A stretch of 64,000 bases of DNA from contig MGTV01000008.1 of assembly GCA_001799635.1 (NCBI GenBank), positions 879-64,878 of the forward strand, given 5' to 3'. The notes under the pieces are model-generated. The model saw only the letters and a list, made by a program, of their open reading frames with translations, searched no databases and was not told the origin of the DNA. This document shows, in pieces, positions 43,602-64,000 of this stretch; within the stretch, counting starts at the first letter, position 1; every line of letters begins with the position of its first letter. The DNA is from Elusimicrobia bacterium GWA2_62_23 (GTDB taxonomy: Bacteria > Elusimicrobiota > Elusimicrobia > Elusimicrobiales > UBA9959). The translations under genes and the position numbers were made by a program.

Positions 43602-43636
43602 TTCCGCAGACGTGCTTTAACGCGTGAGGATAATTT

Positions 43637-44182
43637 ATGAAGACCCTGTGTTCAGCTCTCTTTTTCGCGGCGATCTTTGCCGCCGTACCGGCTGCGGCCG
43701 CCGATACCGAGGATACCCTGCGGGCGCAACTCAAATCGGCCTCTACGCCTGAGGCCAGGCGCGCTATCATGGACCAGATAAAGCAGGCCCGCGCGGTTTC
43801 CCGTCCCGCCGCCGCGCCCGCGGCCCAGGCGGACCCCGCCGCCCGCCGGGCCAGGATGGAAGAATCTCTGAAGGACGATCCCGAGCGCCTGGCCGAATTC
43901 CGCCTGCAAGAGTCCCTGCGCGCCGCCAGGACCCCGGAAGACCGCGCGGCCATACGCAAGCAATTGGAAGAGAAACGCGCCGCCCGCGCCGCGAAGGCGG
44001 AGGCCGCGTTGACCCCGGAGCAGAAAGCCGTGCGCGCCCAAAGAGCGGCCCAGGCCGCCGCCATGCGCGCCGAAATGCAGCCGCTCAGGGAGCGCCTGCG
44101 CGCCGCCGCTACGGAAGCGGAGCGCGATTCCGCCAGAGAGGCCCTGCGCGCGGTGCAGGAAAAGTACCGTGCCAAGCCTTGA
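43637..44182 (+). CDS. Secreted Ala/Arg/Glu-rich helical protein, possibly Spy/CpxP-like (LTxxQ)
   Basis: GAGGA Shine-Dalgarno, signal peptide, highly helical low-complexity sequence, one LTPEQ motif. Confidence 0.45.
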   Translation: MKTLCSALFFAAIFAAVPAAAADTEDTLRAQLKSASTPEARRAIMDQIKQARAVSRPAAAPAAQADPAARRARMEESLKDDPERLAEFRLQESLRAARTPEDRAAIRKQLEEKRAARAAKAEAALTPEQKAVRAQRAAQAAAMRAEMQPLRERLRAAATEAERDSAREALRAVQEKYRAKP

Positions 44183-44213
44183 GGTGACTTAAAGTTTTAT
44201 TGGAGATAAACGG

Positions 44214-47773: not shown

Positions 47774-50700
47774 ATGTACGTCATGAACGAGTGCAGATAT
47801 AACAACCGTTGCTCTCGCTCCCGTATCCGTATGGGAGCGGTTTTTGCCGCTTTGTTGTTATCGTCTGTTCTTTTTGCGCCTGAGGGGGTTCGCGCGCAGG
47901 CCGTTCCGGACGGTATAGTTTCCTCCAAGTCCACCTCAACCTGCCATAATACCAATTCTTTTAATTTCTATTCGTCCTTCTCTGGAGCTTCCTATTACCG
48001 CTATGTCTGGGATACCAGCCCTACCCATACCTGGACGCACGCGGAAACCCAGTGGAGTTCCGGAGTCCTTAACCTTACGGCCGCCTCCGAAGGAACCTGG
48101 TATTTTCACGCTATGGCGTATGACAGCGGGGGGGTGCCGGGAACGGATATTCACCTGCCTCTGATCTACGATATCACTCTCCCTGTCGTTTCAGGTTTTT
48201 CCAGCCTGAATTCATCCGGCGGGACCGTGACCGAAAGCCAGTACAATAACCTGGCTTCCGGGGTTACCGTACAGATCACCGTGCAGGACGCTCTGGCGGG
48301 CCTGATAGTGACCACCGCTGCGGTACCTGGCGACATGCTCGGATTTCCCGGGGGGGTCTCCGTGGCGTATTCCAACGACGCCGGGCGTAACTGGGCCTAC
48401 GACACTGTAGTTTTAAGTTCTGATGGCGCTAAAACTTCGATCTTCTGTCTGGCAGTCTACAACGGCAGACTTTACGCCGGGCAGACTGGCAGCACTGGGG
48501 ACGGTGACGTGCTGGTATATGATGGCTCTTCCTGGAGCGTCAGCTACAACGGGTCCCAGACCGGTATCTACTCCCTGGCGGCCTATAACGGCAAACTTTA
48601 CGCTGGGCAAGGTCAGGGCACCGGGCTTGGAGATATTTACGTTTTCGACGGTGCCTCCTGGTCCCTTAATTACGACACTTCACGCGATATCACAATATCC
48701 ATGGCCGTTTATAACGGCAAACTCTACGCAGGCTGGGGCGACGACCTTGGAGAGGGTGACATCTATGCCTATGACGGCACTTCCTGGGTTTTTAGTTACA
48801 ACGGCGGCCAAGAGTATATACGTGCCCTGGCGGTATACAATAACAAACTTTACGCCGGGCAGGGCAGCGGCACTGGAGACGGCGACGTGCTGTCATACAA
48901 CGGGACTTCCTGGGGAACCAGTTATAATGGGGCACAGGAATACATAACATCGCTTTCGGTCTACAACGGCAAACTCTACGCCGCCCAGGGCAGCAGTACC
49001 GGAGACGGTGACGTATTTGTTTATGACGGTTCCTCGTGGACAACCAGTTATAACGGTTCGCAGGAAGTTGCCTACTTGGGGGTCTACGGCGGCAAATTGT
49101 ACGCGGGTGAGGGCACGGGCACTGGTGACGGCGATATGCTGGCTTTCGACGGGACCCGCTGGGGCCGCGTCGCGAATACGGATTATTCCTATGTTTACGC
49201 CCTCACGGGTTATGATGGGAGTCTCTTCACAGCCATGGGGAGCGGCACTCCCATGGGAGATATTTTGCGTTCGGCCCCTGCCGCCCCGGCAACGCTGACC
49301 GGTACCGACGGCACCACGGCGGCGCAGACCCTGTCGGCGGTGGTAAGTCTTTCCGCGTCCACCAATACGCAGACCTGCGCCGGGGCGGAGCCCTGCGGGG
49401 CCACCAACCAGGTGATCTTTACCGCCATGGACAGGGCCGGGAACGTGCGCCGCGCCGGGCCCTACGCGGTGCTGCTTTCCGTTACTCCTTCCGCGGCCGA
49501 GGTGGTTCCGGGGAAATCCACCGGGGTCTGGTACCATACCAGTTCCTTTACTTTTTCCTCGTCTTTCAAGGACGCGGCGTATTACCGGTACGCCTGGGAT
49601 ACTTCCGCCACCCATTCCTGGACTTATTCGGAACCGCAGTGGACGGCCTGGGTACTGTCCCCGGCCGGAGTTTCAGGGGCCGCCGGAAACTACCTGCACC
49701 TGCTGCCGTACAACATCGAGGGGACTTACGGGACCTCCCGGGATATAGGGCCGTTCTATCTGGACGCCTCTTCCCCGGTGGCGTCCGGCTTTGTCAGTTA
49801 CAGCTCTACCGCCGGCGTAATGGGTGAGGCCCAGGTGAATGGCCTGCTTTCCGGGGTCACCGTGCAGGTGACGGTTCAGGACATTCTCTCCGGCCTGTTG
49901 CTCAGCACCGCGGCGGTGCCGGCGGACCTGGCGGCCGGGCCCGGCGGTTTCGGGATGATGTATTCACAGGATTCCGGAACCACCTGGACGGTGAACGTGG
50001 CTTCCGTGTCCTTTGACGGTGCTGAAGAATATATCTTCGCGCTGGCGGCCTACAACGGGAAACTTTACGCGGGTCAGGGGAACGGGACCGGCAACGGGGA
50101 CGTTTATGTCTACGACGGAGTTTCCTGGAGCCTCAGCTATGACGGCGCCCAGGAAGCCATCTATTCCCTCGCCGTCTATAACGGCAAATTATACGCCGGA
50201 CAGGGATACAGTACCGGTGACGGGGATGTGCTGGTTTTTGACGGGTCGACCTGGGGCGTTTCTTTGGATAACCCTTTTGTTTCTTATGTTTACGCCATGA
50301 CCGAGTTCCAAGGTAAGCTATACGCCGCCTTCAGTAGTCCCGGATCTGTCTATTCTTTTGACGGGTCCTCCTGGACCAAGGTCTACGACTACAATACCAC
50401 GCTCGCCGACATGGCGGTGTACGACGGTAAACTGTACCTGGCCGCCATGTATTATATCCTGGTTTTCGACGGCAACTATTGGGGGATAACCTATGACGCC
50501 GGCGCTACGTATGTAAAGAAATTGGCCGTTTACAACAACAGGCTTTACGCCGGCCTTGGGGGTAGTACCGGTACCGGCGACGTGCTGGTGTACGACGGCA
50601 AGTCCTGGGCGATGAGTTTTGACGGTACCCAGGAATACATTGTTTCTCTCTTTCCTCACGACGGCAGGCTTTACGCCGGCCAGGGGAGCGGCACTGGGGA

Positions 50701-53700
50701 CGGCCGTATTTATGTTCTCAACGGCGCGACATGGACCCTGGCTTATTCCGGCCTGCAGGAGTATATCTATTCCATGGCGGCCTATAACGGAAAGCTTTAT
50801 GCCGGACAGGCCTACAGCTCCGGGGACGGCGACGTGATAGAATTTGCCCCCGCTTCCTCGGTGACCCTTAGCGGGAGCGACGGTTCCGTGGTTCCGCAAA
50901 CCCTTGCAGGCACGGCTAATTTTAAACTGTCTGCCACGGCGGACACCTGCTCCGGGACCTTCCCTTGTTCTGCCACTAACCAGGTCATTTTTACCGCTAC
51001 TGACAAGGCCGGCAACGTGCGGACGGCCGGTCCTTATGCCGTGCTGGTAGCGGGGCCGCCAAATTCTTCGGACGTTGACGCGCTCAAATCCACCGGCGTA
51101 TGGCATTCTTCCGGCACGTTCCCCTTCGTTTCCGGTTTTTCCGCCGCGGCTTATTACCGTTACGTCTGGGATAACTCGGTCTCCCATGACTGGACGGGCG
51201 GTGAAACGCAGTGGCCTTCGGGCGTTTTGTCGCTCGACGCGGCCGCGGAAGGAGCGGACTGGTATTTCCACGCCGTGCCGTACGACATCCTGGGCAGTTC
51301 CGGCCCCGACCGGCACATAGGGCCGCTCCGCTTCGACGCAACGCCGCCGGCCGTTTCCGCTTTCGCTTCTTTCAGTTCTACCGGCGGCTTGCTGGGGGAA
51401 TCTCAGTTCAACGATCTCCTGGCGGGGGTTACGGTGCAGCTGGTGGTACAGGACCTCCTGAGCGGCCTGGCGGTCTCGACCTTGGCGCCGGTTACCGAAC
51501 TTCCGGGAGGGCTGCAAGCCTTTTCCGTGGCTTATTCCAGCGACGCCGGACATGCCTGGAACACGCTCTCAACCGCTACCAGTTATAACGCTTCCCAGGA
51601 GGCGTTTTACTCGCTCGCGGTTTACGGTCAGAAGCTTTATGCCGGGCAGGCAAGCGAGGCCGGGGACGGGGACGTTTTCTCCTTCGACGGAACTTCCTGG
51701 GTGAAGACGTTCGACGGCACGCAGGAAACTATTTCCTGCCTCGCGGTTTACCAGGGGAAACTTTATGCCGGCCAGGGAACCGGCACCGGGGACGGGGACG
51801 TCTACGTTTATGACGGGATTTCCTGGCAGTTGAGTTATGACGGGCCGCGCAACATTATTTCCTCCCTCGCGGTTTACAAGGATAAACTCTACGCCGGCCA
51901 GGGCAGCAGTTCCGGTTACGGGGACGTGCTGGTGTTCGACGGCAGTTCCTGGAGCGTTTCCTATGACGGGGCGCAGGAATATATTTTTTCCCTCGCCGTG
52001 CACCAGGGGAGGCTTTATGCCGGACAGGGGAATGGCGCCGGGGACGGGGATGTGCTCGTTTACGACGGCATCAATTGGACGGTCAGTTATGACGGCGCCC
52101 AGGAGATTATAAACACCCTGGCCGTTTACGATGGCAAACTGTATGCCGGGCAGGGATACAATGCCGGGGATGGCGACGTGCTGGCCTTCGACGGGACCGC
52201 CTGGGGCGTTTCTTATGACGGGACCCAAGAAGGTATTTATTCACTGCAGCAGCACGGCGGTAAACTTTACGCCGGCCAGGGCAACGGTTCCGGAGACGGA
52301 GATCTCCTGGTCTATGACGGCGCCTCCTGGACCCTTGCCTGGAACGGGCCGCAGGAGGGCCTCTATTCCCTGGCCAGTTACAAGGGGCGCCTTTACTCCG
52401 GGCAGGGCATTTCTTCTGGCGACGGAGATGTCCTGGAGTTCTCTCCTTTCCCCGCCGTCCTGTCGGGCGCGGATGGGACCATTGCTCTGCAAACGGCCTC
52501 CTCCACGGTGCGCCTGGCCCTTTCTTCCAATACCCAGACCTGCGGCGGCGTAGAGCCTTGCGGAGCCACCAACCAGGTCCGTTTCTATTTTGCCGACCTG
52601 GCGGGAAATGTCACCCGGGCCGGTCCGTTTGCCGTCGTCACCCGGATCCCGCCTTCCGCCCAGAACGTAGTTTCCCTGAGATCCACGGGGACATGGTACA
52701 ACGCCGCGGCGGGTGATTTTACGTTCACTTCCGACTTTCAACAGGCGGTCTATTACCGTTACGCCTGGGACGCCTCTCCCACACGCGTCTGGGCTCATGA
52801 CGAAACACAGTGGCTTTCAGGAAATCTTGCCCTGGCGGGGGCGGACGGGCAGGACCGGTACCTCCACCTCCTGCCCCATGACCTGTCTGATTCCTCCGGT
52901 ACCCCTGTGGACCTCGGGCCTTTCCGGCTGGACAGCACCGCCCCATCCGTTTCCGGCTACAACTGGGTGAGTTCCACCGGCGGCCTCATGTCGGAAAGCC
53001 AGTTCCTTACCCTCGCGACAGGCGCGACTTTCCAGGTGTTGGCCCAGGACTCGGCTTCCGGCCTCATGGTCTCGTCCTATATTCCCACGGTGGGTTTTGA
53101 GGGCGGCAGCCTGCCCTCGGGCTTTTCTTCCGGCGGCAATCTGCCCTGGACGGTATCTTCTCTTATCCCCTACGCCGGCTCTTACGCGGTCCGTTCGGGG
53201 AATATCGGCAATTCCCAGTCTTCCTGGCTGCGCTTCCAGGGTGAATTACAGGCCGGCTTCCTGAATTTTTGGTTCAAATTGAGTTCCCAGAGTTCCTCCG
53301 ATTACCTCCGGTTCTATATAGACGGGGAGCAGCGGAGTGCGTGGAGCGGTGTTCTTGCCTGGAGCGAAGTGAGTTACGAAGTGGCGGCTGGGCAGCATAT
53401 CCTGGAATGGGTCTACGTCAAGGACGCTTCCTCTTATTCCGGTGATGACGAGGCCTGGGTCGACCAGATAACTTTTCCTGGCACTTACATGGCCGCTGAA
53501 TATTCCCTGGACGCCGGGACAACCTGGGCGGAAGTCCGGGATTTTTCCGCCGGCGCTATCCCGGGCCTGGCTTTGACCGGAGTCAATGGTACTGTGGCCC
53601 AGCAGACGGCATCGCTCTTTTCTCCCGCGTTCAAGGTTTCCACCAACACCCAGACCTGCGGCGGCGTAGAGCCTTGCGGGGCTACCAACCAGATACGTTT

Positions 53701-56700
53701 TGGCATCCCGGACCGCGCGGGGAACACAACCTATGCCGGGCCCTATGCCGTTCTGTTAACTCTGGCCCCCGAGGCGTCCGATGTGGCAGTTTCTAAGTCC
53801 ACCGGGGTATGGCACAATACCAGTTCTTTTACCTTCACTTCCGCTTTCCCTACGGCCGTCTATTACCGCTACGCGCTTACCAATTCTCCGGCTCATGTCT
53901 GGACGTTCTCCGAAACGCAGTGGCTGTCCGGAGCCCTTACGCTGGAAATCCCCGCCGGCTCTTCCGATTGGTATTTCCACGCCCTTCCTTACGATATCCT
54001 GAACGGTTCCGGCACTCCGGCTTCGCTTGGTCCGTTCCGCGTGGAAACGGCCTCTCCGGCTCTTTCAGGTTTTTACGTCTACAGTTCTACCGGCGGCATT
54101 TTTCCGGAGGGGGAATTCGTGGACCTTGCCGCCGGGGTTACGGCCCAGATCCTGGTGCAGGATGTTCTTTCCGGCCTGCTGGTTTCCACTTCCGTACCGC
54201 CTGCCGGCGGAACTTACGGCCCCGGCGGTTTTGGCGTCCTGTTCAGCAAGGACGCCGGGCAGACCTGGAGTTCGGATTTGCCGGCGACCACCTTTAACGG
54301 AGCGCAGGAGTATGTTTTTTCCCTGGCCGCCTACGGCGGTAAACTTTATGCCGGCCAGGGCATAGGCACTGGGGACGGCGACGTGCTGGTCTTCGACGGA
54401 AGTTCGTGGCAGATAAGTTATAACGGCACACAGGAGGTTATCCGCGCCCTTGTGGTCTACGACGGCAAACTTTACGCCGGACAGGGCAGCGGTACAGGTG
54501 ACGGAGATGTGCTGGTATACGACGGCAATTCCTGGGCGGTGAGCCATGACGGCTCCCGTCCCTCCGTCCTTTCCCTCTCCGTATATGCCGGCCGGCTTTA
54601 CGCAGGCCTGGGGGGATCCACCGGGGACGGGGACGTGATGGTGTTCGACGGCAGCTCCTGGACGTTGAGCTACGCTGGCGCCCAGGAGGGCATTTACTGT
54701 CTGGCCGTTTATGACGGAAAACTTTACGCCGGCCAGGGTTACAGTAATACGGACGGGGATATTTACGTTTTTGACGGCGTCTCCTGGACTAAAAGTTTCG
54801 AAGGATCTTCATACTTTATTCGCTCGCTGGCGGTTTATAACGGGAAACTTTATGCCGGCCAGGAGGGGTCGTCTACTACTGGCGGCGATATTTATTCCTT
54901 CGACGGGAAGTCCTGGATTAACGTCTTCGAAGGTGTCGGCTACGGCGTACAATCCCTGGCCGTTCATGATGGCAAACTTTATGCCGGCTTGGGGAAAGAA
55001 TCCTACTCTACGGTCGCGGATATATATGTGTTTGACGGGGTCACCTGGCGGCAAATGCATGACGGACCTGACGGGTTTGGTTATTTCGCGCTGGCCCCTT
55101 ACAATGGGCGCCTCTACGCGGGGAGCGGCTGGAGCGGGGATATCCTTGTGTTCTCCCCGGCGGCGGTCTCCTCGCTGACCGGGACGGACGGCACGGCTTC
55201 CCAGCAGACGCTTTCAACCCGTCTCGACCTGCGGACCTCCACTAATACCCAGACCTGCGGCGGCATTTCTCCGTGCGGGGCCACTAACCAGGTAAAATTC
55301 TTTGCCATGGACCTGGCCGGCAACGTCGCCATGGGCGGGCCCTACGCGTTGCTGATCTCCAGCACTCCCTCCGCCGACGACGCCTGGGTTTCCGTCTCCA
55401 CGGGGGGGTGGTACACCGCCGTCCCGCTTTCGGTCTTCTCCCCGTTCTCACGGGCGGCCTATTTCCGCTACAGCCTGGACGCGGCCGCCTCCCGGGAATG
55501 GACCTTTGCCGAACCCGTGTGGTCCTCCGGGACACTTTCGCTGGGGATCCCCGCCGATGGTACGGACTGGCACGTCCACCTGCTGCCTTATGACCTGCTG
55601 GACAGTTCCGGCGCCGCCCGCTCTATAGGTCCGTTCAGGTATGACGCCCAGCCGCCGGTCTTCTCGGCTTTTGCGTCCTACAGCTCCACCGGGGGGCTCC
55701 TGGGTGAGGCGCAGTTCAATGACCTGGTCTCGGGAGTAACCATCCAGATCTCCGTACAGGACGTCCTCTCCGGTCTGCTGGTCAGTTCGGCCGGAGTTCA
55801 GGGCTGGGGACCCTTTGCTCCCGGAGGTTTCCGCGCCGAATACTCCGCCGATTCCGGTGCCACCTGGCAAGAGGATACCCTTTCTGTTTCTTTCGACGGT
55901 GTGTTCTATGAAATAACCTGCTTTGCGGTTTATAACGGCAAACTTTACGCCGGGCAGGGGCGATACAGTGGGGCGGGGGATATTTACGCTTTTGACGGGG
56001 TCTCCTGGACTTTGGTTTATAACGGTTCCTATGACGAGGTTTCCTCTCTGGCCGTGTTCGAGGGAAAACTTTATGCCGGTATGGGGAACGCTTCCTCCTC
56101 CGGGGATATTTACGTGTATGATGGCGCTACCTGGGTGCTTTCTTACAACGGCCAGGCGAGTTCCGTGCACGCGCTCTCCGTTTACGGAGGCCGGCTTTAC
56201 GCCGCTCTTGGCGGCTACGCGGGGGTGGGAGACATCCTGGTGCATGACGGTGCCGCCTGGAGCGTATCCTATGACGGCGATTTGACCTACGCTTATGCCC
56301 TGGCTGTTTACGAAGGCCGCCTTTACGCGGGTTTCGGCGGCAGCACCGGTGATGGTGACATAATGGCCTATGACGGCCATTCCTGGACGCTCAGTTACGA
56401 CGGTTCCCAGGAAGGCTTCTTCTGTCTTGCGGTGTACGACGGAAAACTTTACGCCGGTCAGGGCAACGGCAGCGGCGACGATGATACTTACGTCTATGAC
56501 GGCAGTTCCTGGAGCCTTAGCCGCGCCGGCAGCGGCTATATAGTGTATTCGCTGGCCGTTTCGGGCGGGCGTCTTTTCTCGGGCGGAGGTTTTCCTCCTA
56601 ACTACGGGGGCACCGCTCCTTCCGACATCTTCATCTATGACGGGTCCGCCTGGACCCAGCTTTACGACGGAACCGGCCTCTATGACACGGTTTCCGCCCT

Positions 56701-59700
56701 TGCCGCCTACGGCGGCCGCCTCTACGCCGGTATGGGTGACGACTCCGGGAAAGGCGACATCCTGGCCTTTTCTCCGGTTGCGGTAGCGTCCATGACCGGA
56801 ACGGACGCTTCCACTTCCCAGGAACTGCTGCGGCTTTCCCTGGATCTGCGGGCTTCCGTCAACTCGGTCACCTGCGGCGGCGTGGCGCCCTGTGCGGCCA
56901 CCAACCAGGTCCGCTTCAAGGCCTCGGACATGGCAGGCAATGTCGTCCATAGCGGTCCCTACGCCGTCATAACTTCCCCGGAGCCTGACGCCTCAGAAGT
57001 GACCGCTTCCCTTACTACCGGGACATGGAATACGGCCAGTTCCAGCGCGGTGTTCTCTTCCTCTTTCCTGAAGGCCGCGTATTACCGTTATGTCTGGGAC
57101 ACCTCCGCGTCCCACGAGTGGACTTATGCCGAGTCCGCCTGGACGTCTGCGGCCCATTCTCTTTACCTGACGCCCGTGCCCGGCGCGGCGAATTGGCTTC
57201 ACTTGCTTCCCTATAACGTTTCTGACAGTTCGGGCTCCCCGCGGGACATCGGCCCTTTCAACTTCGACGGCGATCTTCCGGCCGCGTCCTCTTTCGCTTT
57301 TAGAAGTTCTACCGGAGGCCTGCTCTCTGAACCTCAGTTCTCCGATTTGTTGTCAGGAGTTACCGTGCAGCTCTCCTGGCAGGACCCGTCTTCCGGGCTT
57401 GCCGTAAGCACATACACCCTGTCCGGCCTGCGATATTCGAATGACGCCGGCGCCACCTGGGTCCCTTACCAGTGGGAACAAATACGCACCGGGCTGGATA
57501 CTCACGTACACGCGATGGCGGTTCATCAAGGGAAGCTGTATGTGGGCACCGGGTCTGGGACAGGGCGGGTATACTCTTACGACGGTTACGCCTGGGCACT
57601 GGTCTATGACGGCCCGGACTCCTACATGAATGCCCTGGCCTCTTACAATGGTCTCCTCTTCGCCGGCGGAGACTCCGGCAATGTGATGGTCTATGACGGC
57701 AATTCCTGGAAACTTTCTTTCGACAGTCCAGCGGAAACGGTCAAATCATTCCAGGTCTATAACGGCAAACTTTACGTTGGTACGGGTTATAACACCGGCG
57801 CTGTTTACGCTTATGACGGCGCAAGCTGGGTGTTCAAATTTTCCTACGCCGACGAGGTGAGTACCATGGCCGTTTATGACGGCAAGCTTTACGCTGGCTT
57901 CGGCAACGACTCCGGCGAAGGCGATATCTACGCTTATGACGGCTCCTCCTGGGTTCTTTCGTACAACGGCTCCGGTTCCAGCGTAATGTCCCTCGCCGCG
58001 TACGCGGGGAAACTTTACGCAGCAATGATCACTACCTGTGAGATCTACCAATTTGACGGTACTGTCTGGTCCCTTAATTTCACCGGCGGCGGGAACTTTT
58101 TCCCAAGCCTGGTGGAACATGACGGCAAACTTTATGCCGGTCTGGGATACGGTTCCGGGGAGGGAGATGTCTACGAATTCAACGGCAGTTCCTGGAGCAG
58201 CTCTTTTAACAGTTCCGAAGACACGGTTGGCGCCATGGCCGTGTACCGCGGTGAAATTTACGTGGGGACCGGATATCATGGCCATATCTACAAGTTGCGG
58301 TCCTATTCTGTCCCTGAGGTTACCGGGGTGTCCGGCACTACGGAGCAGCAGGTCATGTCCGGCCTTGTTTCTCTGTCGGCCTCCACCAACACCGAAACCT
58401 GCGGCGGCGCCGCCCCCTGCGGGGCCACCAACCAGGTTAAATTCTACGCGGCCGACACCGCGGGGAATCTTAGTTTCGCGGGGCCGTACGCGGTGCTGGC
58501 CGCCCCGGAGGCTTCGGCCGCGGACGCAGCCGCGAATTTCTCTACCGGGGCCTGGACCAGCCGCAGCACTTTTTCTTTCAACTCTTCTTTCATCCAGGCG
58601 GCCTATTACAGGTATGTCTGGGACGCTTCGCCCGCCAGGGAGTGGGTTTATACCGAGCCGCAGTGGCTCCCTTCTTCCGCAACTCTTTCTTTTCAGGCCG
58701 CGGAAGGGGCCAACTACCTGCATCTCCTGCCTTACAACGTTTTGGGTTCTTCCGGGGCTCCCCGGGACCTCGGGCCTTTCCTTTTTGAAGCCGCTTCTCC
58801 CACCGCGGCGGCTTTCTTTACCATAAGTTCTACCGGTGGCGCCCTCAGCGAAGCCCAGTTCAATGCCCTTGTGGAGGGCGTTACCGCGCAGCTTACGGTG
58901 CGCGACCTGCTCAGCGGCCTCAGCGTTTCTACCTGGGCCGCCGTATATGAGGGTTTTGAGACCGGCACCCTGCCGCTGGGTTGGGAAACCGGCGGGAATC
59001 TGCCCTGGTATACGCAATCAGGGGTTCAGTTCGCAGGTGGCCACGCCGCCAGGGCCGGGCTTTTGGCGCCTTCGCAGGTTTCCTGGCTGCAGGCGACGGT
59101 GCAGAATTTCGTCCCGGGACAGTTTTCTTTCAGACGTTATGGACAGGCCGGCGATTCCTGGTTCAGGTTCTGGATAGACGGGGCCTCCAAGGGCTACTGG
59201 TTTGCGGAAACCTCCGGCTGGGTGCAGGAAAGTTACGCGGTTTCCGCCGGGTCCCACACCTTGCTTTGGCAGTATCTTACTAATTCCAATCCCGGCCTCA
59301 ATCTCCTTCTCCTGGACGATATCACTTTCCTGCGGCGACCTTCCTGGGCGGAGTACTCACTGGACGCCGGGGTTACCTGGAAACAGGCCGGGACCGTTTC
59401 CCTTACCGGCGCGGAAGGCAGTACGGAAGACCAGACCCTGAGCGCCCTGTTCACGCTGCGCGCTTCTTCCAATACCGAAACCTGCGGCGGGTCCTCTTCT
59501 TGCGGTGCCACCAACCAGGTCCGATTCTATGTTTCCGACCAGGCCGGGAACGTGAGGCAGGCGGGGCCTTTCGCCGTTATAACCTCGCCTGTTCCGCACG
59601 CTTTGGACGTGCAGTCAGGCAGGTCCACGGGCACCTGGTACAGCGTGCCCAAATTCACGTTCCAGTCTGAGTTCTTTGGCGCGGCCTATTACCGTTACGT

Positions 59701-62700
59701 CTGGGACACCTCCGACTCTTACGAGTGGACGTACGCCGAACCGCAGTGGGGAGCGGGGAACCTTTCACTCTCCGCGGTCACCTCCGGCGCCGGCTACTAC
59801 CTGCACCTGCTGCCTTACAATGTTTCCGACAGCAGCGGGGCACCCCGGCACCTGGGGCCGTTCTTCTTCGAGGGAGACATCCCTTCCGGGTCTTCTTTCG
59901 CCACCGTCAGTTCTACCGGAGGACTTCTTTCCGAATCCCAACCCACCGCGCTTTCCGCCGGGGTCACGGTGCAGTTCACCTTGCAGGATGTTCTCTCAGG
60001 GCTGTTGGTCTCGGAGGGGGGCGCTCCTTCGGAATATCCTTTCCAGGCCGGAGGTTTCAGGATTTCATACTCCCGGGACGCGGGCGCTACCTGGTCCTCC
60101 GAAAGTACGGTAGTTTCTCATTACAGTTCGGCTATTGGCGTGCATTGCCTCACGGTTCATGACGGTAAACTCTACGCGGGGCATGGGGAGGACGACGAAC
60201 TCGGGCAGGGCGACATTTTTGTGTATGACGGTTCCTCCTGGTCGTTGAGTTATGAAGGCCAGGAGGTCAGCATCCGCGCCCTGGCATCCTACGGCGGCAA
60301 ACTATACGCCGCACAGTACGGCTGGGACGAGGGAGATGGGGATATCCTGGTGTTCGACGGTGGGAGCTGGTCCGTCAGCTATGACGCCGTGGTCTACGGG
60401 GGTATCGAGTCCCTGTGGGCTTTCGGCGGGAAATTATACGCCGGTACGCTAAGTTGGGATGTCCTGGGGGATATCCTGGTCTTTGACGGCGGTTCCTGGA
60501 AACTGGACTTCGCCACGGGCAAGGACGCGGTGGCCGCTTTCGCTACCTACAACGGGGAACTCTTTGCCGGGGTCGGCTACGATGACGCCAACGGGAACGG
60601 GGACATTTATGTGCGCCGAGGCAATTCCTGGGAGGGTTCCTTCGACGGCAATGAGATTTCCATCCGGGACTTCGCCGTTTACGGCGGAAAACTTTACGCC
60701 GCGCAGTACGGCTGGGATACCGGAGACGCCGTGCTTCTGGTCTATGACGGGGAGCAATGGACCCAGCATTCCACTTTTGACGTCTATGTCGGCGTAGCGA
60801 GTTTGTCCGTGTATAACGGGCGGCTTTTCGCGGGTATCGGGGACTTTTCCTGGGATCCGGACGGGGAAGTTTACTCATACGACGGCGAGGTCTGGACCAG
60901 GATCTATGACGGCGCTAAGATGGCCATAAAGGACCTGGCAGTGTATGACGGCTCCTTGTACGGCGCCGAGTACGGCTATTCGCCGGGAGAGGCTTCCGTG
61001 CTCAGACTTTCCGACCCGGTGCGGGCCTCCATTACCGGCTCCGACGGCACTACCGCCGCGCAAACGTTTTCCGCGGTTCTGGACTTGTCGCCCTCGGCGG
61101 ACGGGGCCGTCTGCGCGGGTGTTGCTCCCTGCTCCGCCACCAACCAGGTAAAGTTCACCGCCACCGACAGGGCTGGCAACGTGGGGATCTACGGGCCGTA
61201 CGCCGTTATAGCCGCGTCGGCGGCCAGCGCCGCGGACGCGGTAGCGGAACGTTCCACCGGCGCCTGGCACAATACCCCCGGTTTCTCGTTCCGCTCCGGT
61301 TTTGGCGGCGCGCTCTACTACCGGTACGCCTGGGATACTTCCCCTTCCCGCTCCTGGACCGGCACCGAGCCGCAATGGACGTCCACTTCCCCTGCTCTTC
61401 ACGTGAGGGCCGCCGCCGAGGGCGCCGATCATTACCTCCACCTGCTGCCGTATAACTACCTGGACGGGGAAGGCCCCCCCAGGGACATCGGCCCGTTCCG
61501 GTTTGAAATGGCCGCGCCCGCGCCCTCAGGTTTTTCCAGCGTAAGTTCCACCGGGGGCTACATGTCCGAATCCCAGGAGAACGACCTGGCCGCCCAGGTG
61601 CAGGTCCGTCTTTCCCTGCAGGATATCCTCAGCGGGCTTTCGGTACTGCCCGACGCCCCGCATGGCCCGGCCGGGTTCCCGGCCGGGGGGTTCTCCGTGC
61701 GCTACTCTAACGACGCCGGCGCCACCTGGTCCGCGGGGGTGGCCTCCCTTTCCTTCGCCGGCCCGACCGAGGATATCACCGCCCTGGCCGTTTATAACGG
61801 CAAACTTTACGCCGGACAGGGTTACGACGACATGGACGATGAAGGCGACGTTTACGTGTACGACGGCAACGCCTGGGCGCTGAGCCTTAACGGGTATAAA
61901 GTGGCCATACGCTGCCTGGCCGTCTATGACGGCAAACTTTACGCGGGGCAGTACGGCTGGGAGTACGGCGACGGGCGCGTGTACGTTTTTGACGGTAATA
62001 CCTGGGAGATCTCCCTGGCCCCTTCGCTTGCGATCTCCGCGCAGGACCTGGCCGTGTATAACGGCAAGCTCTACGCTGGCCTTTACGGCTGGTGGGACGA
62101 TGACGAAGGGGATGTTTATGTTTTCGACGGTAAGACCTGGCGGATCAGTTTTGACGGCATCACGGACGGTATCGCCGCCTTGGCCGTATACGACGGCAAG
62201 CTTTACGCGGGCGAAGGCTATTGGGGCGACACAGGCGAGGGAGATGTGCGGGTTTTCGACGGTAATTCCTGGAAACTTTCTTTTGACGGCGGCGCCACCA
62301 CTATAAATTCCCTGGCTGTTTATGACGGCAGGCTTTTCGCCGGTCAGACCGGAGCCGGCGGGGACGGGGATGTCTATGTCTACGACGGTTCTGCCTGGGT
62401 GCTTTCCCTGGATGGGGAGACCGAAGGCTTCAGTTCGCTGTGCGTTCATAACGGCCGGCTCTATGCCGGTGCCGGTTACTGGGGATCGGAAGGCGACGGG
62501 GATATGTACGCTTATGACGGTGCCTCCTGGAGACTTGAATTCGAGGGGCCGGCCGCGGCGATACGCGCCATGGCGTCTTACGGCGGCGCTCTTTATTACG
62601 GCGAAACAGGCTATGACCCCGGCGACGGCCGCGTAATGCGCCTCTTGGATAGCCCCTCGGCCGCCCTGACGGGCACGGAGGGCACGGCCTCTCCCCAGAC

Positions 62701-64000
62701 GCTTTCGGCTTCTTTGGCGTTGAAAGTTTCCACTAACACCGAGACTTGCGGAGGAGTCTCTCCCTGCGGCGCTACCAACCAGGTGGTCTTCGCTTTTACC
62801 GACACGGCCGGTAACTCCGCTAACGCCGGCCCCTACGCCATTATTTCCGTCCCGCCGCTGAGCGCGGACGACGTTACCCCTTTGCGTTCCACCGGGGTCT
62901 GGTACCATACTTCCACTTTCGGCTTTACCTCCGCTCAGGTCAACGCCGCTTATTATCGCTATGCCTGGATAGACTCACCTTCTTACGCTTGGACCTATTC
63001 CGAGCCGGTCTGGTCCACTCCGGATATGGATTTGAGCGCTTTGTCTTCCGCCGCTACCTGGTATCTTCACCTCCTGCCCTATAATTCCGGCGGTACTTTT
63101 GGCGCTTCACGCGTCATAGGGCCTTTCCTTTATGACGGCGTGGCGCCGTCCCCGTCCTTCTTCCATACCTATAACTCCACCGGCGGGGTAATAGCCGAGC
63201 CCGGCTTTAATAACCTTACCTCCGCGGTTACCGCCCAGCTCTCCGTCTGGGAAGGCCTCAGCGGGCTGTCGTTGCGCTTCTATGAACCCGGACAGGACGT
63301 GTTTTCCGCCGCTGCCAGGAGCTTTGAGGAGGGGACTCTGCCGGCGCAGATGGTTACCGGGGGGAACGCTCCCTGGTATGTCGTATCCGGCACCGCGGCG
63401 GCCGGAACCTATTCGGCCCGCAGCGGCGACATAACGGAAGGCGGCCAATCCTACATGTACTTCTCCGCGGATACAACGGAGGGGGAGATCTTCTATTACC
63501 GGCTTATTGATACCGAGAGCCGCTACGATAACCTGCGTTTCAGTATAGACGGCGTAGAGGTTTCCTCCCGTTCCGGCGGCTTGCCTTGGGCGAAAGAGAG
63601 TTTTCCCGTCAGCGCAGGGCGGCATACCTTCATGTGGGTTTACGTTAAAGACCTCTGGGATACCGAGCTGTCGGACACGGTATGGGTGGACCAGATAGAA
63701 CTCCCTTCAACGGCCACCGTGCAGGTGCAGTATTCCACCAGTGCCGGCAACAACTGGCTGCCGGTGCAATCCACGGTGCCGGCCGCTTCGCCCTACCTGT
63801 CGCTTACCGGCTTCGACGGCACCTTGTCCACCCAGACCTTCAAGGTCTATAACATGCAATTGGCGCCTTCCACCAGCGCCGTGGTCTGCGCGGGGGCCTC
63901 CCCCTGCGACGCCACCAACCAGGTGCGGTTCTTCCTTGGCGACCACGCGGGAAATTTGATGACGGCCGGTCCTTATTCGGTGCTGGTCGACACCGCCCCC
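47774..64000 (+). CDS. Giant secreted modular repeat protein, 3' end beyond the window (at least ~5,400 codons). Not present in the supplied ORF track
   Basis: The frame with codon starts congruent to 2 mod 3 is open from ATG 47774/47783/47831 to base 64000. I hand-translated 47783-50370 and 51542-56000 and found no stop. The track lists no + ORF in this frame after 47705, as expected for an ORF that never closes. The N-terminus MGAVFAALLLSSVLFAPEGVRAQA is a signal peptide. Conserved protein modules recur 11 times. Confidence 0.85.
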   Translation, partial: MYVMNECRYNNRCSRSRIRMGAVFAALLLSSVLFAPEGVRAQAVPDGIVSSKSTSTCHNTNSFNFYSSFSGASYYRYVWDTSPTHTWTHAETQWSSGVLNLTAASEGTWYFHAMAYDSGGVPGTDIHLPLIYDITLPVVSGFSSLNSSGGTVTESQYNNLASGVTVQITVQDALAGLIVTTAAVPGDMLGFPGGVSVAYSNDAGRNWAYDTVVLSSDGAKTSIFCLAVYNGRLYAGQTGSTGDGDVLVYDGSSWSVSYNGSQTGIYSLAAYNGKLYAGQGQGTGLGDIYVFDGASWSLNYDTSRDITISMAVYNGKLYAGWGDDLGEGDIYAYDGTSWVFSYNGGQEYIRALAVYNNKLYAGQGSGTGDGDVLSYNGTSWGTSYNGAQEYITSLSVYNGKLYAAQGSSTGDGDVFVYDGSSWTTSYNGSQEVAYLGVYGGKLYAGEGTGTGDGDMLAFDGTRWGRVANTDYSYVYALTGYDGSLFTAMGSGTPMGDILRSAPAAPATLTGTDGTTAAQTLSAVVSLSASTNTQTCAGAEPCGATNQVIFTAMDRAGNVRRAGPYAVLLSVTPSAAEVVPGKSTGVWYHTSSFTFSSSFKDAAYYRYAWDTSATHSWTYSEPQWTAWVLSPAGVSGAAGNYLHLLPYNIEGTYGTSRDIGPFYLDASSPVASGFVSYSSTAGVMGEAQVNGLLSGVTVQVTVQDILSGLLLSTAAVPADLAAGPGGFGMMYSQDSGTTWTVNVASVSFDGAEEYIFALAAYNGKLYAGQGNGTGNGDVYVYDGVSWSLSYDGAQEAIYSLAVYNGKLYAGQGYSTGDGDVLVFDGSTWGVSLDNPFVSYVYAMTEFQGKLYAAFSSPGSVYSFDGSSWTKVYDYNTTLADMAVYDGKLYLAAMYYILVFDGNYWGITYDAGATYVKKLAVYNNRLYAGLGGSTGTGDVLVYDGKSWAMSFDGTQEYIVSLFPHDGRLYAGQGSGTGDGRIYVLNGATWTLAYSGLQEYIYSMAAYNGKLYAGQAYSSGDGDVIEFAPASSVTLSGSDGSVVPQTLAGTANFKLSATADTCSGTFPCSATNQVIFTATDKAGNVRTAGPYAVLVAGPPNSSDVDALKSTGVWHSSGTFPFVSGFSAAAYYRYVWDNSVSHDWTGGETQWPSGVLSLDAAAEGADWYFHAVPYDILGSSGPDRHIGPLRFDATPPAVSAFASFSSTGGLLGESQFNDLLAGVTVQLVVQDLLSGLAVSTLAPVTELPGGLQAFSVAYSSDAGHAWNTLSTATSYNASQEAFYSLAVYGQKLYAGQASEAGDGDVFSFDGTSWVKTFDGTQETISCLAVYQGKLYAGQGTGTGDGDVYVYDGISWQLSYDGPRNIISSLAVYKDKLYAGQGSSSGYGDVLVFDGSSWSVSYDGAQEYIFSLAVHQGRLYAGQGNGAGDGDVLVYDGINWTVSYDGAQEIINTLAVYDGKLYAGQGYNAGDGDVLAFDGTAWGVSYDGTQEGIYSLQQHGGKLYAGQGNGSGDGDLLVYDGASWTLAWNGPQEGLYSLASYKGRLYSGQGISSGDGDVLEFSPFPAVLSGADGTIALQTASSTVRLALSSNTQTCGGVEPCGATNQVRFYFADLAGNVTRAGPFAVVTRIPPSAQNVVSLRSTGTWYNAAAGDFTFTSDFQQAVYYRYAWDASPTRVWAHDETQWLSGNLALAGADGQDRYLHLLPHDLSDSSGTPVDLGPFRLDSTAPSVSGYNWVSSTGGLMSESQFLTLATGATFQVLAQDSASGLMVSSYIPTVGFEGGSLPSGFSSGGNLPWTVSSLIPYAGSYAVRSGNIGNSQSSWLRFQGELQAGFLNFWFKLSSQSSSDYLRFYIDGEQRSAWSGVLAWSEVSYEVAAGQHILEWVYVKDASSYSGDDEAWVDQITFPGTYMAAEYSLDAGTTWAEVRDFSAGAIPGLALTGVNGTVAQQTASLFSPAFKVSTNTQTCGGVEPCGATNQIRFGIPDRAGNTTYAGPYAVLLTLAPEASDVAVSKSTGVWHNTSSFTFTSAFPTAVYYRYALTNSPAHVWTFSETQWLSGALTLEIPAGSSDWYFHALPYDILNGSGTPASLGPFRVETASPALSGFYVYSSTGGIFPEGEFVDLAAGVTAQILVQDVLSGLLVSTSVPPAGGTYGPGGFGVLFSKDAGQTWSSDLPATTFNGAQEYVFSLAAYGGKLYAGQGIGTGDGDVLVFDGSSWQISYNGTQEVIRALVVYDGKLYAGQGSGTGDGDVLVYDGNSWAVSHDGSRPSVLSLSVYAGRLYAGLGGSTGDGDVMVFDGSSWTLSYAGAQEGIYCLAVYDGKLYAGQGYSNTDGDIYVFDGVSWTKSFEGSSYFIRSLAVYNGKLYAGQEGSSTTGGDIYSFDGKSWINVFEGVGYGVQSLAVHDGKLYAGLGKESYSTVADIYVFDGVTWRQMHDGPDGFGYFALAPYNGRLYAGSGWSGDILVFSPAAVSSLTGTDGTASQQTLSTRLDLRTSTNTQTCGGISPCGATNQVKFFAMDLAGNVAMGGPYALLISSTPSADDAWVSVSTGGWYTAVPLSVFSPFSRAAYFRYSLDAAASREWTFAEPVWSSGTLSLGIPADGTDWHVHLLPYDLLDSSGAARSIGPFRYDAQPPVFSAFASYSSTGGLLGEAQFNDLVSGVTIQISVQDVLSGLLVSSAGVQGWGPFAPGGFRAEYSADSGATWQEDTLSVSFDGVFYEITCFAVYNGKLYAGQGRYSGAGDIYAFDGVSWTLVYNGSYDEVSSLAVFEGKLYAGMGNASSSGDIYVYDGATWVLSYNGQASSVHALSVYGGRLYAALGGYAGVGDILVHDGAAWSVSYDGDLTYAYALAVYEGRLYAGFGGSTGDGDIMAYDGHSWTLSYDGSQEGFFCLAVYDGKLYAGQGNGSGDDDTYVYDGSSWSLSRAGSGYIVYSLAVSGGRLFSGGGFPPNYGGTAPSDIFIYDGSAWTQLYDGTGLYDTVSALAAYGGRLYAGMGDDSGKGDILAFSPVAVASMTGTDASTSQELLRLSLDLRASVNSVTCGGVAPCAATNQVRFKASDMAGNVVHSGPYAVITSPEPDASEVTASLTTGTWNTASSSAVFSSSFLKAAYYRYVWDTSASHEWTYAESAWTSAAHSLYLTPVPGAANWLHLLPYNVSDSSGSPRDIGPFNFDGDLPAASSFAFRSSTGGLLSEPQFSDLLSGVTVQLSWQDPSSGLAVSTYTLSGLRYSNDAGATWVPYQWEQIRTGLDTHVHAMAVHQGKLYVGTGSGTGRVYSYDGYAWALVYDGPDSYMNALASYNGLLFAGGDSGNVMVYDGNSWKLSFDSPAETVKSFQVYNGKLYVGTGYNTGAVYAYDGASWVFKFSYADEVSTMAVYDGKLYAGFGNDSGEGDIYAYDGSSWVLSYNGSGSSVMSLAAYAGKLYAAMITTCEIYQFDGTVWSLNFTGGGNFFPSLVEHDGKLYAGLGYGSGEGDVYEFNGSSWSSSFNSSEDTVGAMAVYRGEIYVGTGYHGHIYKLRSYSVPEVTGVSGTTEQQVMSGLVSLSASTNTETCGGAAPCGATNQVKFYAADTAGNLSFAGPYAVLAAPEASAADAAANFSTGAWTSRSTFSFNSSFIQAAYYRYVWDASPAREWVYTEPQWLPSSATLSFQAAEGANYLHLLPYNVLGSSGAPRDLGPFLFEAASPTAAAFFTISSTGGALSEAQFNALVEGVTAQLTVRDLLSGLSVSTWAAVYEGFETGTLPLGWETGGNLPWYTQSGVQFAGGHAARAGLLAPSQVSWLQATVQNFVPGQFSFRRYGQAGDSWFRFWIDGASKGYWFAETSGWVQESYAVSAGSHTLLWQYLTNSNPGLNLLLLDDITFLRRPSWAEYSLDAGVTWKQAGTVSLTGAEGSTEDQTLSALFTLRASSNTETCGGSSSCGATNQVRFYVSDQAGNVRQAGPFAVITSPVPHALDVQSGRSTGTWYSVPKFTFQSEFFGAAYYRYVWDTSDSYEWTYAEPQWGAGNLSLSAVTSGAGYYLHLLPYNVSDSSGAPRHLGPFFFEGDIPSGSSFATVSSTGGLLSESQPTALSAGVTVQFTLQDVLSGLLVSEGGAPSEYPFQAGGFRISYSRDAGATWSSESTVVSHYSSAIGVHCLTVHDGKLYAGHGEDDELGQGDIFVYDGSSWSLSYEGQEVSIRALASYGGKLYAAQYGWDEGDGDILVFDGGSWSVSYDAVVYGGIESLWAFGGKLYAGTLSWDVLGDILVFDGGSWKLDFATGKDAVAAFATYNGELFAGVGYDDANGNGDIYVRRGNSWEGSFDGNEISIRDFAVYGGKLYAAQYGWDTGDAVLLVYDGEQWTQHSTFDVYVGVASLSVYNGRLFAGIGDFSWDPDGEVYSYDGEVWTRIYDGAKMAIKDLAVYDGSLYGAEYGYSPGEASVLRLSDPVRASITGSDGTTAAQTFSAVLDLSPSADGAVCAGVAPCSATNQVKFTATDRAGNVGIYGPYAVIAASAASAADAVAERSTGAWHNTPGFSFRSGFGGALYYRYAWDTSPSRSWTGTEPQWTSTSPALHVRAAAEGADHYLHLLPYNYLDGEGPPRDIGPFRFEMAAPAPSGFSSVSSTGGYMSESQENDLAAQVQVRLSLQDILSGLSVLPDAPHGPAGFPAGGFSVRYSNDAGATWSAGVASLSFAGPTEDITALAVYNGKLYAGQGYDDMDDEGDVYVYDGNAWALSLNGYKVAIRCLAVYDGKLYAGQYGWEYGDGRVYVFDGNTWEISLAPSLAISAQDLAVYNGKLYAGLYGWWDDDEGDVYVFDGKTWRISFDGITDGIAALAVYDGKLYAGEGYWGDTGEGDVRVFDGNSWKLSFDGGATTINSLAVYDGRLFAGQTGAGGDGDVYVYDGSAWVLSLDGETEGFSSLCVHNGRLYAGAGYWGSEGDGDMYAYDGASWRLEFEGPAAAIRAMASYGGALYYGETGYDPGDGRVMRLLDSPSAALTGTEGTASPQTLSASLALKVSTNTETCGGVSPCGATNQVVFAFTDTAGNSANAGPYAIISVPPLSADDVTPLRSTGVWYHTSTFGFTSAQVNAAYYRYAWIDSPSYAWTYSEPVWSTPDMDLSALSSAATWYLHLLPYNSGGTFGASRVIGPFLYDGVAPSPSFFHTYNSTGGVIAEPGFNNLTSAVTAQLSVWEGLSGLSLRFYEPGQDVFSAAARSFEEGTLPAQMVTGGNAPWYVVSGTAAAGTYSARSGDITEGGQSYMYFSADTTEGEIFYYRLIDTESRYDNLRFSIDGVEVSSRSGGLPWAKESFPVSAGRHTFMWVYVKDLWDTELSDTVWVDQIELPSTATVQVQYSTSAGNNWLPVQSTVPAASPYLSLTGFDGTLSTQTFKVYNMQLAPSTSAVVCAGASPCDATNQVRFFLGDHAGNLMTAGPYSVLVDTAP
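48440..49279 (+). repeat. Propeller-like array 1: seven ~41-aa (~123-bp) blades, consensus xxSLAVYNGKLYAGQGxGTGDGDVxVYDGSSWxxSYDGxQE
   Basis: Seven consecutive blades read in the translation. Confidence 0.75.
50030..50851 (+). repeat. Propeller-like array 2 (seven blades)
   Basis: Same blade consensus. The central blades are more degenerate. Confidence 0.7.
51602..52447 (+). repeat. Propeller-like array 3 (seven blades)
   Basis: Seven clean blades read in the translation. Confidence 0.75.
53090..53482 (+). repeat. Jelly-roll-like module J1 (paralogues at 58946-59332 and 63317-63709)
   Basis: VGFEGGSLPSGFSSGGNLPWTV...SYAVRSGNIGNSQSSWLRF...LRFYIDGEQRSAW...GQHILEWVYVKD...AWVDQITFPG. The same pattern (FExGxLPxGW..GGNxPW ... 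W(V/L)DxIxxP) occurs in all three copies. Confidence 0.7.
54311..55159 (+). repeat. Propeller-like array 4 (seven blades)
   Basis: Blade consensus as above. Confidence 0.7.
55907..56776 (+). repeat. Propeller-like array 5 (seven blades)
   Basis: Blade consensus as above. Confidence 0.7.
57503..58303 (+). repeat. Propeller-like array 6 (about seven blades, more divergent)
   Basis: Blade consensus as above. Confidence 0.65.
58946..59332 (+). repeat. Jelly-roll-like module J2
   Basis: YEGFETGTLPLGWETGGNLPWYTQ...WFRFWIDGASKGYW...GSHTLLWQYLTN...LLLDDITFL. Confidence 0.7.
60134..61015 (+). repeat. Propeller-like array 7 (about seven blades, variant with YGWDxGDG loops)
   Basis: Blade consensus as above. 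Confidence 0.65.
61772..62660 (+). repeat. Propeller-like array 8 (seven blades)
   Basis: Blade consensus as above. Confidence 0.7.
63317..63709 (+). repeat. Jelly-roll-like module J3
   Basis: RSFEEGTLPAQMVTGGNAPWYVV...LRFSIDGVEVSSRS...GRHTFMWVYVKD...VWVDQIELPS. Confidence 0.7.

Follow-up and report, generated by a model that had tools for sequence, protein, structure and literature searches.

Giant repetitive surface proteins are known, and giant proteins are common in the phylum Elusimicrobiota. Type I secretion system (T1SS)/RTX adhesins such as LapA, SiiE, MpIBP, and Bap-type proteins consist of long, rod-like β-sandwich repeats with ligand-binding modules and act in surface adhesion. 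Instead of a Sec signal, they use an RTX/T1SS signal at the C-terminus, and their ligand-binding domains lie together at one end. Here, we analyzed a 64,000-nucleotide stretch of DNA (hereafter, the window) of the metagenome-assembled genome (MAG) Elusimicrobia bacterium GWA2_62_23 (contig MGTV01000008.1), whose last 16 kb are occupied by a giant gene encoding a protein of 5,586 amino acids (aa). This protein is likely a functional analog of the T1SS/RTX giant adhesins, but it differs from them in having a Sec-type signal, no RTX repeats, and a head in every module. Membership in that class would call for C-terminal RTX nonapeptide repeats, a T1SS signal, and the absence of a Sec signal; in the giant protein, no RTX/HemolysinCabind match was detected, and a Sec-type signal is present.

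Huge proteins of Elusimicrobiota and Omnitrophota have been surveyed previously (PMC11573180; bioRxiv 10.1101/2023.11.21.568195). In the portions of these reports drawn on here, more than 41,000 proteins longer than 5,000 aa are counted in UniProtKB, with Elusimicrobiota among the most enriched bacterial phyla (PMC11573180), and giant proteins are linked to predatory or host-associated lifestyles (PMC11573180; bioRxiv 10.1101/2023.11.21.568195). An initial inspection of the window without database searches (the sequence-only reading) had called bacterial genes of this size rare, which these counts show to be overstated. The window protein, encoded by a single uninterrupted open reading frame (ORF) of more than 5,000 codons, shares the size class and the enriched phylum with the surveyed proteins, which are likewise metagenome-derived, mostly unannotated, equipped with a signal peptide, and predicted to have surface or attachment roles. 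The same portions of the surveys describe the class and not the family of the window protein, and the nested module reported below does not appear in them. Enzymatic or dockerin/thrombospondin domains, described there for Omnitrophota giants (bioRxiv 10.1101/2023.11.21.568195), are absent from the window protein. The 2016 Rifle MAG releases made the sequence public, with the neighboring genes annotated as hypothetical proteins, and our literature search found no mention of GWA2_62_23.

Reading frame and length of the giant gene

Translation from ATG 47774 to base 64000 gave no stop among 5,409 codons, in agreement with the sequence-only reading. Each of the three start ATGs that it had listed (47774, 47783, and 47831) was confirmed; the closest in-frame stop on the 5′ side is at 47540–47542. 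Over the same stretch, the remaining five frames contain 37–309 stops each, and the longest stop-free run elsewhere is 514 codons, on the antisense strand. Given a stop probability of 0.030 per codon, as follows from the base composition of the region, 5,409 codons without a stop would arise by chance with a probability of approximately 1e-72. GC contents at codon positions 1, 2, and 3 of the giant frame are 0.575, 0.519, and 0.700; they are uniform over the ORF and follow the same direction as in the neighboring genes. The frame was missing from the original ORF list because the lister skips ORFs running past the sequence end, which is the explanation that had been proposed. The other ORFs in these 16 kb had been dismissed as shadows, and this is mostly right: nearly all of those of at least 200 aa are antisense. 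The frame is kept open over thousands of codons in orthologs with 55–67% identity, confirming that it is a real coding sequence.

The gene had also been described as still open after more than 5,400 codons. This is correct within the window, but the gene ends shortly beyond it. An exact look-up of the gene directly upstream matched two independent groundwater assemblies in ENA (SRR1658344 and SRR2177986). In both assemblies, the next gene, which starts at the window-equivalent position 47774, has a gene call of 5,586 aa that ends within the contig. The two loci differ from the window by 3 mismatches in 23,492 nt and 9 mismatches in 14,544 nt. Therefore, the giant gene ends approximately 534 nt past the window, and its stop codon is expected at the window-equivalent position 64532–64534, approximately 177 codons beyond the last base analyzed. 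This end is deduced from the gene-call length together with matching tail lengths in orthologs. Scans of genome and metagenome contigs with the last module of the protein gave no match, and a word-indexed search did not return the giant protein itself. The giant gene is real and intact and comprises 5,586 codons.

A hairpin with an 11-bp stem, the loop TCCG, and a following TTTTTG is located at 47815–47840. It overlaps the alternative start ATG 47831 and lies within the ORF if translation starts at 47774. This is the top-ranked terminator-like hairpin in the 33–48 kb region, in which the total number of such hairpins is not above that of shuffled sequences. It could sequester the start site, attenuate transcription, or have arisen by chance.

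Module architecture, folds, and family range

The signal peptide is followed by 11 super-modules (M1 to M11, Table 1), each composed of two β-sandwiches, D1 and D2, the second of which is interrupted by an inserted head. D1 (~95 aa, motif AAYYRYxWD) starts the module, and the first part of D2 (D2a, SSTGG...GVTVQ..VQD.LSGL) follows and leads into the insert. The second part (D2b, LTGxDGT..QT...S.NT.TCGGxxPCGATNQVxFxxxDxAGN..xxGPYAV) closes the module. Eight modules contain an insert of ~295 aa made of exactly seven blades of 42 aa (P type; 56 blades in total), and M4, M8, and M11 contain a different, ~130-aa jelly-roll insert (J type), giving the order P P P J P P P J P P J. The blades are four-stranded and 46–49% identical to each other; an analysis by blade position did not set similarity within propellers apart from similarity between propellers.

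The modules are 31–54% identical at the protein level and 43–60% identical at the DNA level, and approximately half of the residues conserved between modules are encoded by different codons. With these values, the earlier description of the repeat divergence as largely synonymous does not hold. The giant ORF contains no exact internal repeat of at least 40 nt. Judging from this divergence, the 11 internal repeats are old. The low DNA identity and the lack of exact repeats therefore make repeat collapse or expansion very unlikely, and only long reads can formally exclude it.

The N-terminus, MYVMNECRYNNRCSRSRIR-MGAVFAALLLSSVLF-APEGVRA↓QA, read from the sequence, shows a charged n-region, a hydrophobic core, and an A-x-A site. 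It does look like the Sec signal that the sequence-only reading had called typical, but it is better read from 47774 or 47783 than from MGAVF..., because the upstream starts supply the positively charged n-region RCSRSRIR, which is missing from MGAVF.... Each module contains one conserved CxGxxPC cysteine pair, and these pairs account for 22 of the 32 cysteines of the protein, which suggests that disulfides may form in an oxidizing, extracytoplasmic compartment. Each module also contains one Asp-box (SxDxGxTW), located outside the propeller on a D2 strand; the blades contain none. The signal peptide, the cysteine pair, and the Asp-box of each module all support an extracytoplasmic location.

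Hidden Markov model (HMM) searches and structure prediction of single modules, as the sequence-only reading had suggested, yielded no convincing family but confident propeller and jelly-roll folds. Its view that the domain arrangement lies outside described families was borne out, as no curated family describes it (Pfam, NCBIfam, PHROGs, and PDB sequences). In the AlphaFold2 model of M3, D1 and a seven-bladed propeller are confident, with a predicted local distance difference test (pLDDT) score of ~80–97 over residues 170–465, and Foldseek matched the propeller to seven-bladed propellers with E ~5e-10. The jelly-roll of M4 was modeled at pLDDT 80–98. Foldseek aligned it with carbohydrate-binding module (CBM) families CBM61, CBM6, CBM35, CBM4, and CBM22, as well as MAM and gingipain adhesin domains, at E 1e-7 to 1e-4 and template modeling (TM) scores of 0.5–0.64. 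The jelly-roll is also structurally similar to phage receptor-binding CBM-like domains. The predicted folds of D1, the propeller, and the jelly-roll are confident.

Sequence profiles did not assign these folds to families. Like self-similar Kelch/WD40-like propellers, the window propeller has seven four-stranded blades of ~42 aa, but it is nested in another domain and occurs eight times in one chain. It has the seven-bladed fold of the Kelch/WD40 type, and no curated sequence model scored above its cut-off. The best Pfam propeller model was the KIB1-4 propeller PF03478 (25.8 versus 27.4 bits); BNR (26.2 versus 27 bits) and WD40_like (19 versus 40 bits) were also sub-threshold. Asp-boxes recurring in the blades and a catalytic match, as in GH33/BNR proteins, were not found. 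The ~130-aa inserts of M4, M8, and M11 share the fold of CBM61, CBM6, CBM35, CBM4, MAM, and gingipain cleaved-adhesin domains, but they lack sequence-level membership in any CBM family; they gave no Pfam match at E ≤ 10 apart from noise and no PDB sequence match. Profile searches against PDB sequences found nothing for D1 or D2, and the matches to trypanosomal sialidases were weak (E 0.008–0.05) and restricted to the Asp-box. In D2b, the ATNQVxFxxxDxAGN region matched Big_3_2 (16–18.8 versus 23.3) and the OmpL47 barrel (22.8–27.1 versus 40) below the cut-offs, and CHB_HEX_C at 25.0 versus 23.6 bits as a summed score with no single stretch passing. D2 and this Big_3_2/CHB_HEX_C/OmpL47 β-sandwich group are probably distantly related. 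The giant protein gave no PHROG match, and neither SLH or S-layer domains nor glycoside hydrolase, lytic, or peptidase domains were detected in it with Pfam and NCBIfam. The component folds (β-sandwich, seven-bladed propeller, CBM-like jelly-roll, and FN3) are ordinary for surface proteins.

HMMs were built here for each part of the protein (D1, D2a, D2b, jelly-roll, blade, FN3, and tail). The nearest relatives are 55–67% identical fragments from groundwater assemblies, and all named relatives are Elusimicrobia MAGs. D1/D2 units were found in 33 of 270 retrieved proteins. The window protein shows the features that define the family: 11 repeated D2a-insert-D2b units, the CxGxxPC pair, the ATNQV motif, and the D1 motif. 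Other proteins of 3,000–7,200 aa reuse D2 many times with other inserts. The gap between D2a and D2b in relatives is 35–43 aa in some copies and 240–400 aa in others; therefore, D2 is a single domain, one loop of which tolerates insertions. When genomes were scanned with the junction D2b-D1-D2a, which is free of the insert, 29 loci were identified, all of which (29/29) belong to Elusimicrobia/Elusimicrobiota MAGs, and a single MAG from Lac Pavin contains at least 10 paralogous loci. The D1/D2 family is restricted to Elusimicrobiota.

The heads have a wider distribution. The propeller blade type is widespread in LamG/DUF2341 proteins of the candidate phyla radiation, Elusimicrobia, and archaea. 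An exhaustive HMMER search with the short-module profile (A2) gave 13,359 cluster representatives at E ≤ 1e-3 and 9,606 at E ≤ 1e-10. Among the matches listed, most cover the jelly-roll alone (profile positions ~166–289), often in tandem arrays in other multi-thousand-residue proteins. As judged by these matches, the jelly-roll is a very widespread domain with no Pfam or NCBIfam model.

The top A2 match, P0147 (5,722 aa), is a complete ortholog found on independent JGI and ENA contigs. It begins with a signal peptide; its 11 modules comprise seven of P type followed by J, P, P, and J, and an FN3 domain and a ~70-aa tail close the protein. Other orthologs comprise 4,774 aa, at least 4,374 aa, and 3,013 aa, and the full-length ones are intact over 4,774–5,722 aa. 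M8 to M11 pair one-to-one with modules 8–11 of P0147. M1 to M7 show no positional orthology to P0147, and the M4 jelly-roll has no counterpart. Thus, the C-terminal core of the protein is conserved, and its N-terminal array is fluid. In the closest ortholog, L003 (Logan assembly SRR21915715, span 2–9626), the gene is split into two overlapping ORFs, 2–5263 and 5211–9626, which reflects either an assembly-error frameshift or a pseudogenized copy.

The C-terminus of the window protein lies outside the window. After the last ATNQV motif, the window protein has 207 residues (30 seen and 177 missing), compared with 207 and 208 in the orthologs P0001 and P0002. On the basis of these matching lengths, an FN3 domain and a ~70-aa tail are predicted to end the window gene as well. 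The tail of P0147 ends in ...GLKAVKKY and carries two cysteines. Cargo of the type IX secretion system (T9SS) has an N-terminal Sec signal, which is present here as read from the sequence, and a C-terminal sorting domain of type A (TIGR04183/PF18962) or type B (CHU_C), neither of which is found in the ortholog tails. The tails of P0001, P0147, and P0003 gave no NCBIfam or Pfam match at E ≤ 10, and comparison with T9SS-type tails by hhalign gave a probability of 1.8%. We therefore rejected the idea that the tail is a divergent T9SS sorting domain, since no such relationship was detectable. The tail was also considered as a general sorting signal on many proteins, but a word-indexed search, of limited sensitivity for an 80-aa profile, gave only 3 small fragments.

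The wider family has different endings. Three relatives, P0154 (7,176 aa), P0158 (6,998 aa), and P0195 (6,602 aa), resemble the window protein in D1, the split D2, repeated variable inserts, the signal peptide, and the phylum. They differ in that their inserts are mostly other domains, D1 occurs only once, and their ending is of the TIGR04183/FlgD-Ig type, in contrast to the FN3 domain and unrelated ~70-aa tail of the window subfamily. Several giants of the wider family end in a T9SS type-A domain (TIGR04183 30.9 and 28.7 bits versus a cut-off of 23), and FlgD_ig scored above its cut-off in their tails. A 362-aa secreted protein encoded in the window (34885–35973) likewise ends in a sorting domain of T9SS type A (TIGR04183 26.2 bits versus 23). 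Therefore, the giants belong to a family of exported surface proteins.

Gene neighborhood and conserved synteny

The giant gene is the last of a co-oriented run (34885–47705 and onward), all members of which encode proteins with signal peptides. The β-helix repeats of the 1,163-aa protein directly upstream match phage virion and tail-spike families in PHROG, and its cluster includes A2049_04485 of the same MAG in a 1,142-aa form. Of seven window proteins looked up, five are identical to proteins of GWA2_62_23 (A2049_04410 and A2049_04460 to A2049_04475) that are encoded on a 280,712-bp contig. The 684-, 381-, and 1,419-aa proteins are fiber-like, with GDxLGxHxAT collars as well as repeats resembling YadA heads, and the 181-aa protein is small and charged.

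Table 1 Coordinates of the giant gene, its modules, and associated genes. Positions refer to the window unless an orthologous locus is named.
Feature	Position	Strand	Evidence or remark
Giant gene, first 5,409 of 5,586 codons	47774..64000	+	Stop-free frame and gene calls in two assemblies
Sec-type signal peptide, MYVMNECRYNNRCSRSRIRMGAVFAALLLSSVLFAPEGVRA↓QA	47774..47902	+	Read from sequence; N-terminus of ortholog P0147 also signal-like
M1: D1, D2a, seven-bladed propeller (48437–49312), D2b	47894..49480	+	
M2, propeller 50030–50887	49481..51052	+	
M3, propeller 51602–52483	51053..52651	+	AlphaFold2-modeled
M4, short type, jelly-roll insert 53093–53485	52652..53761	+	AlphaFold2-modeled
M5, propeller 54311–55195	53762..55360	+	
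M6, propeller 55910–56812	55361..56980	+	
M7, propeller 57503–58294	56981..58504	+	
M8, short type, jelly-roll 58952–59338	58505..59587	+	Reciprocal best match of P0147 module 8
M9, propeller 60137–61039	59588..61216	+	
M10, propeller 61772–62641	61217..62851	+	
M11, short type, jelly-roll insert 63320–63715	62852..64000	+	Window ends ~11 residues after module
1,163-aa secreted fiber-like protein, β-helix and YadA-head-like repeats	44214..47705	+	phrog_6002, 1.5e-27
Co-oriented secreted proteins of 362, 684, 381, 1,419, and 181 aa	34885..44182	+	
Downstream conserved genes	L003 9657–11146; L004 6581–7045; L034 19486–21012; L038 9525–11047		

The two large fiber-like genes at 39342–47705 share cassettes. 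A 300-nt cassette is 91% identical between 41895–42194 and 43026–43325, and a 168-nt cassette is 95% identical between 42004–42171 and 43135–43302. A 69-nt collar motif (GDxLGxHxATxxLNMxGF) occurs in 10 copies across 35992–47705. The near-identical cassettes suggest recent internal duplication or recombination between paralogous fiber genes.

Gene order is kept in five orthologous loci, in which a fiber-like gene is followed by the giant gene, a gene for a ~154-aa protein, and then a Sel1 gene. A homologous fiber protein is encoded directly upstream of P0147 (locus L034). On the 3′ side of the giant gene, these loci encode a secreted, highly charged ~154-aa protein and, in most cases, then a ~340-aa Sel1-repeat protein. 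The Sel1-repeat gene is present in L003, L034, and L038, with 54% identity between loci, and a response regulator occupies this place in L004. Following the conserved Sel1 gene reached orthologous loci of other strains (L036, L037, and L038–L041) and not the contig of the window. The 154-aa/Sel1 pair could be assembly or anchoring partners of the giant protein.

The rest of the window encodes hydrogenase maturation (hyp) genes, trehalose synthesis, a Fic/AbiEii patch, an M23 peptidase, and transporters. The maturation genes hypD and hypF lie at 956–7133, and the trehalose synthesis pair, a 751-aa GT20 fusion protein and TreT, lies at 16387–21311. This ordinary metabolic context indicates that the window is chromosomal. 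A low-GC patch at 21753–24545 (GC 0.546 versus ~0.62 elsewhere) contains a Fic-domain gene (21753–22787) and an AbiEii toxin gene (23460–24323) and adjoins a tRNA-Glu gene (24470–24545, minus strand). This patch may be a small mobile or defense island.

Proposed function and meaning of the giant protein

We propose that the giant protein is probably a secreted surface fiber with 11 lateral heads that binds glycans, particles, or cells multivalently. The protein would be exported by the Sec pathway and act as an extracytoplasmic, fiber-like component of groundwater Elusimicrobia, here a Rifle aquifer MAG. The repeated D1–D2 pairs would form the stalk, and a loop of each D2 would bear the head (8 propellers and 3 CBM-like jelly-rolls). 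The FN3 domain and the small cysteine-containing C-terminal domain would be the probable anchor or export director. The heads would provide multivalent, low-affinity, adhesin-like binding to glycans, particles, and other cells, and the protein would act alongside the co-encoded fiber-like surface proteins. Assuming that each β-sandwich measures ~4 nm, we estimate a fiber length of ~0.1 µm. The surface location, fiber shape, and binding function are all inferred. Several results weigh against this proposal. No adhesin family HMM matches the giant protein, and no ligand-binding residues were identified. The propeller matches only generic propellers (WD40-like or designed), and D2 was modeled at low to moderate confidence (pLDDT <50 in M3 and 55–75 in M4). 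Moreover, the tail is known from orthologs and not from the window gene, matches no known sorting or anchor domain, and is found on almost no other protein.

Other explanations were weighed against the same data. The protein may instead be a structural component of the envelope, such as an S-layer-like coat, a sheath, or a matrix scaffold, with heads serving self-assembly or binding the cell's own envelope glycans. The export features fit this equally well, the neighbors are repetitive secreted proteins, the Sel1 and coiled-coil neighbors could be assembly factors, and the 10 or more paralogous loci in one MAG suggest an abundant envelope class. However, close lineages differ in the number and order of their modules (3,013 to 5,722 aa) and the N-terminal array lacks positional orthology, a pattern seen more typically in variable adhesins than in proteins that form lattices; together with the lack of SLH or S-layer domains, this leads us to regard an envelope role as unlikely. 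Slightly less likely is a contact-dependent apparatus for attachment to a host or prey, episymbiotic or predatory, working with the phage-tail-fiber-like proteins by analogy with the proposal for Omnitrophota giants. In favor of this, the upstream neighbor has matches in phage virion-structural and tail-spike families, synteny of the cluster extends across species, and the literature, in the portions drawn on above, ties giant proteins to such lifestyles. On the other hand, lytic, peptidase, and glycosidase domains are absent from the giant protein, unlike in the Omnitrophota proteins, the giant protein itself has no PHROG match, and the lineage shows no sign here of host dependence.

The remaining explanations are much less probable. 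An array of sialidase- or glycosidase-like propellers that degrades polysaccharides with the help of CBMs would account for the Asp-box in each module, the weak trypanosomal sialidase matches, the near-threshold BNR score, and the CBM-like jelly-rolls. We rejected this enzymatic reading as very improbable, since the Asp-box lies on a D2 strand outside the propeller and the blades lack it, no glycoside hydrolase family matches, and the propeller is of the generic WD40-like or designed kind and unlike GH33. A structural gene of a prophage or tailocin is a still slimmer prospect. The PHROG matches of the neighbor and the likeness of the jelly-roll to phage receptor-binding domains would agree with it, but the giant protein has no PHROG match, nothing in the window other than the 1,163-aa neighbor was seen to resemble phage genes, no capsid, terminase, portal, baseplate, or integrase gene was seen around the cluster, the flanks are chromosomal, and the locus is conserved in several species; this reading was thus also rejected. 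Finally, there is hardly any chance that the gene is an assembly artifact (repeat expansion or chimera) or a decaying pseudogene. All assemblies are short-read metagenomes, and the ortholog in L003 is split. Against this stand the divergence of the modules, the same 5,586-aa gene in two independent assemblies from different samples, full-length orthologs on independent JGI and ENA contigs, and the negligible chance of such an open frame without selection. Repeat collapse or mis-assembly was rejected as far as short-read data allow.

A more far-reaching version of the surface-fiber proposal combines these points, and we consider it speculative and unlikely. D2 would be an Elusimicrobiota-specific display scaffold with swappable heads, and module shuffling would retune the specificity of the ~0.1-µm fiber. 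The two-cysteine ...KAVKKY tail would represent an undescribed anchoring or export route unlike the T9SS tails of the sister giants. Together with the syntenic phage-fiber-like proteins, the giant protein would form a dedicated attachment organelle.

No current view is overturned by these results. What is new is the description of a family, confined to one phylum, in which D1, D2, and the tail are unannotated, a scaffold domain with a nested head recurs 11 times, and propeller and jelly-roll heads are swapped. The protein is a concrete, delimited case within the unexplained surplus of giant proteins in Elusimicrobiota. Three or four of its domains (D1, the split D2, the widespread jelly-roll, and the C-terminal tail) have no Pfam or NCBIfam model, and defining them would help to annotate several very large genes in each of these MAGs. 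The surface fibers proposed here are testable candidates for the attachment of uncultivated groundwater bacteria to particles, glycans, and cells.

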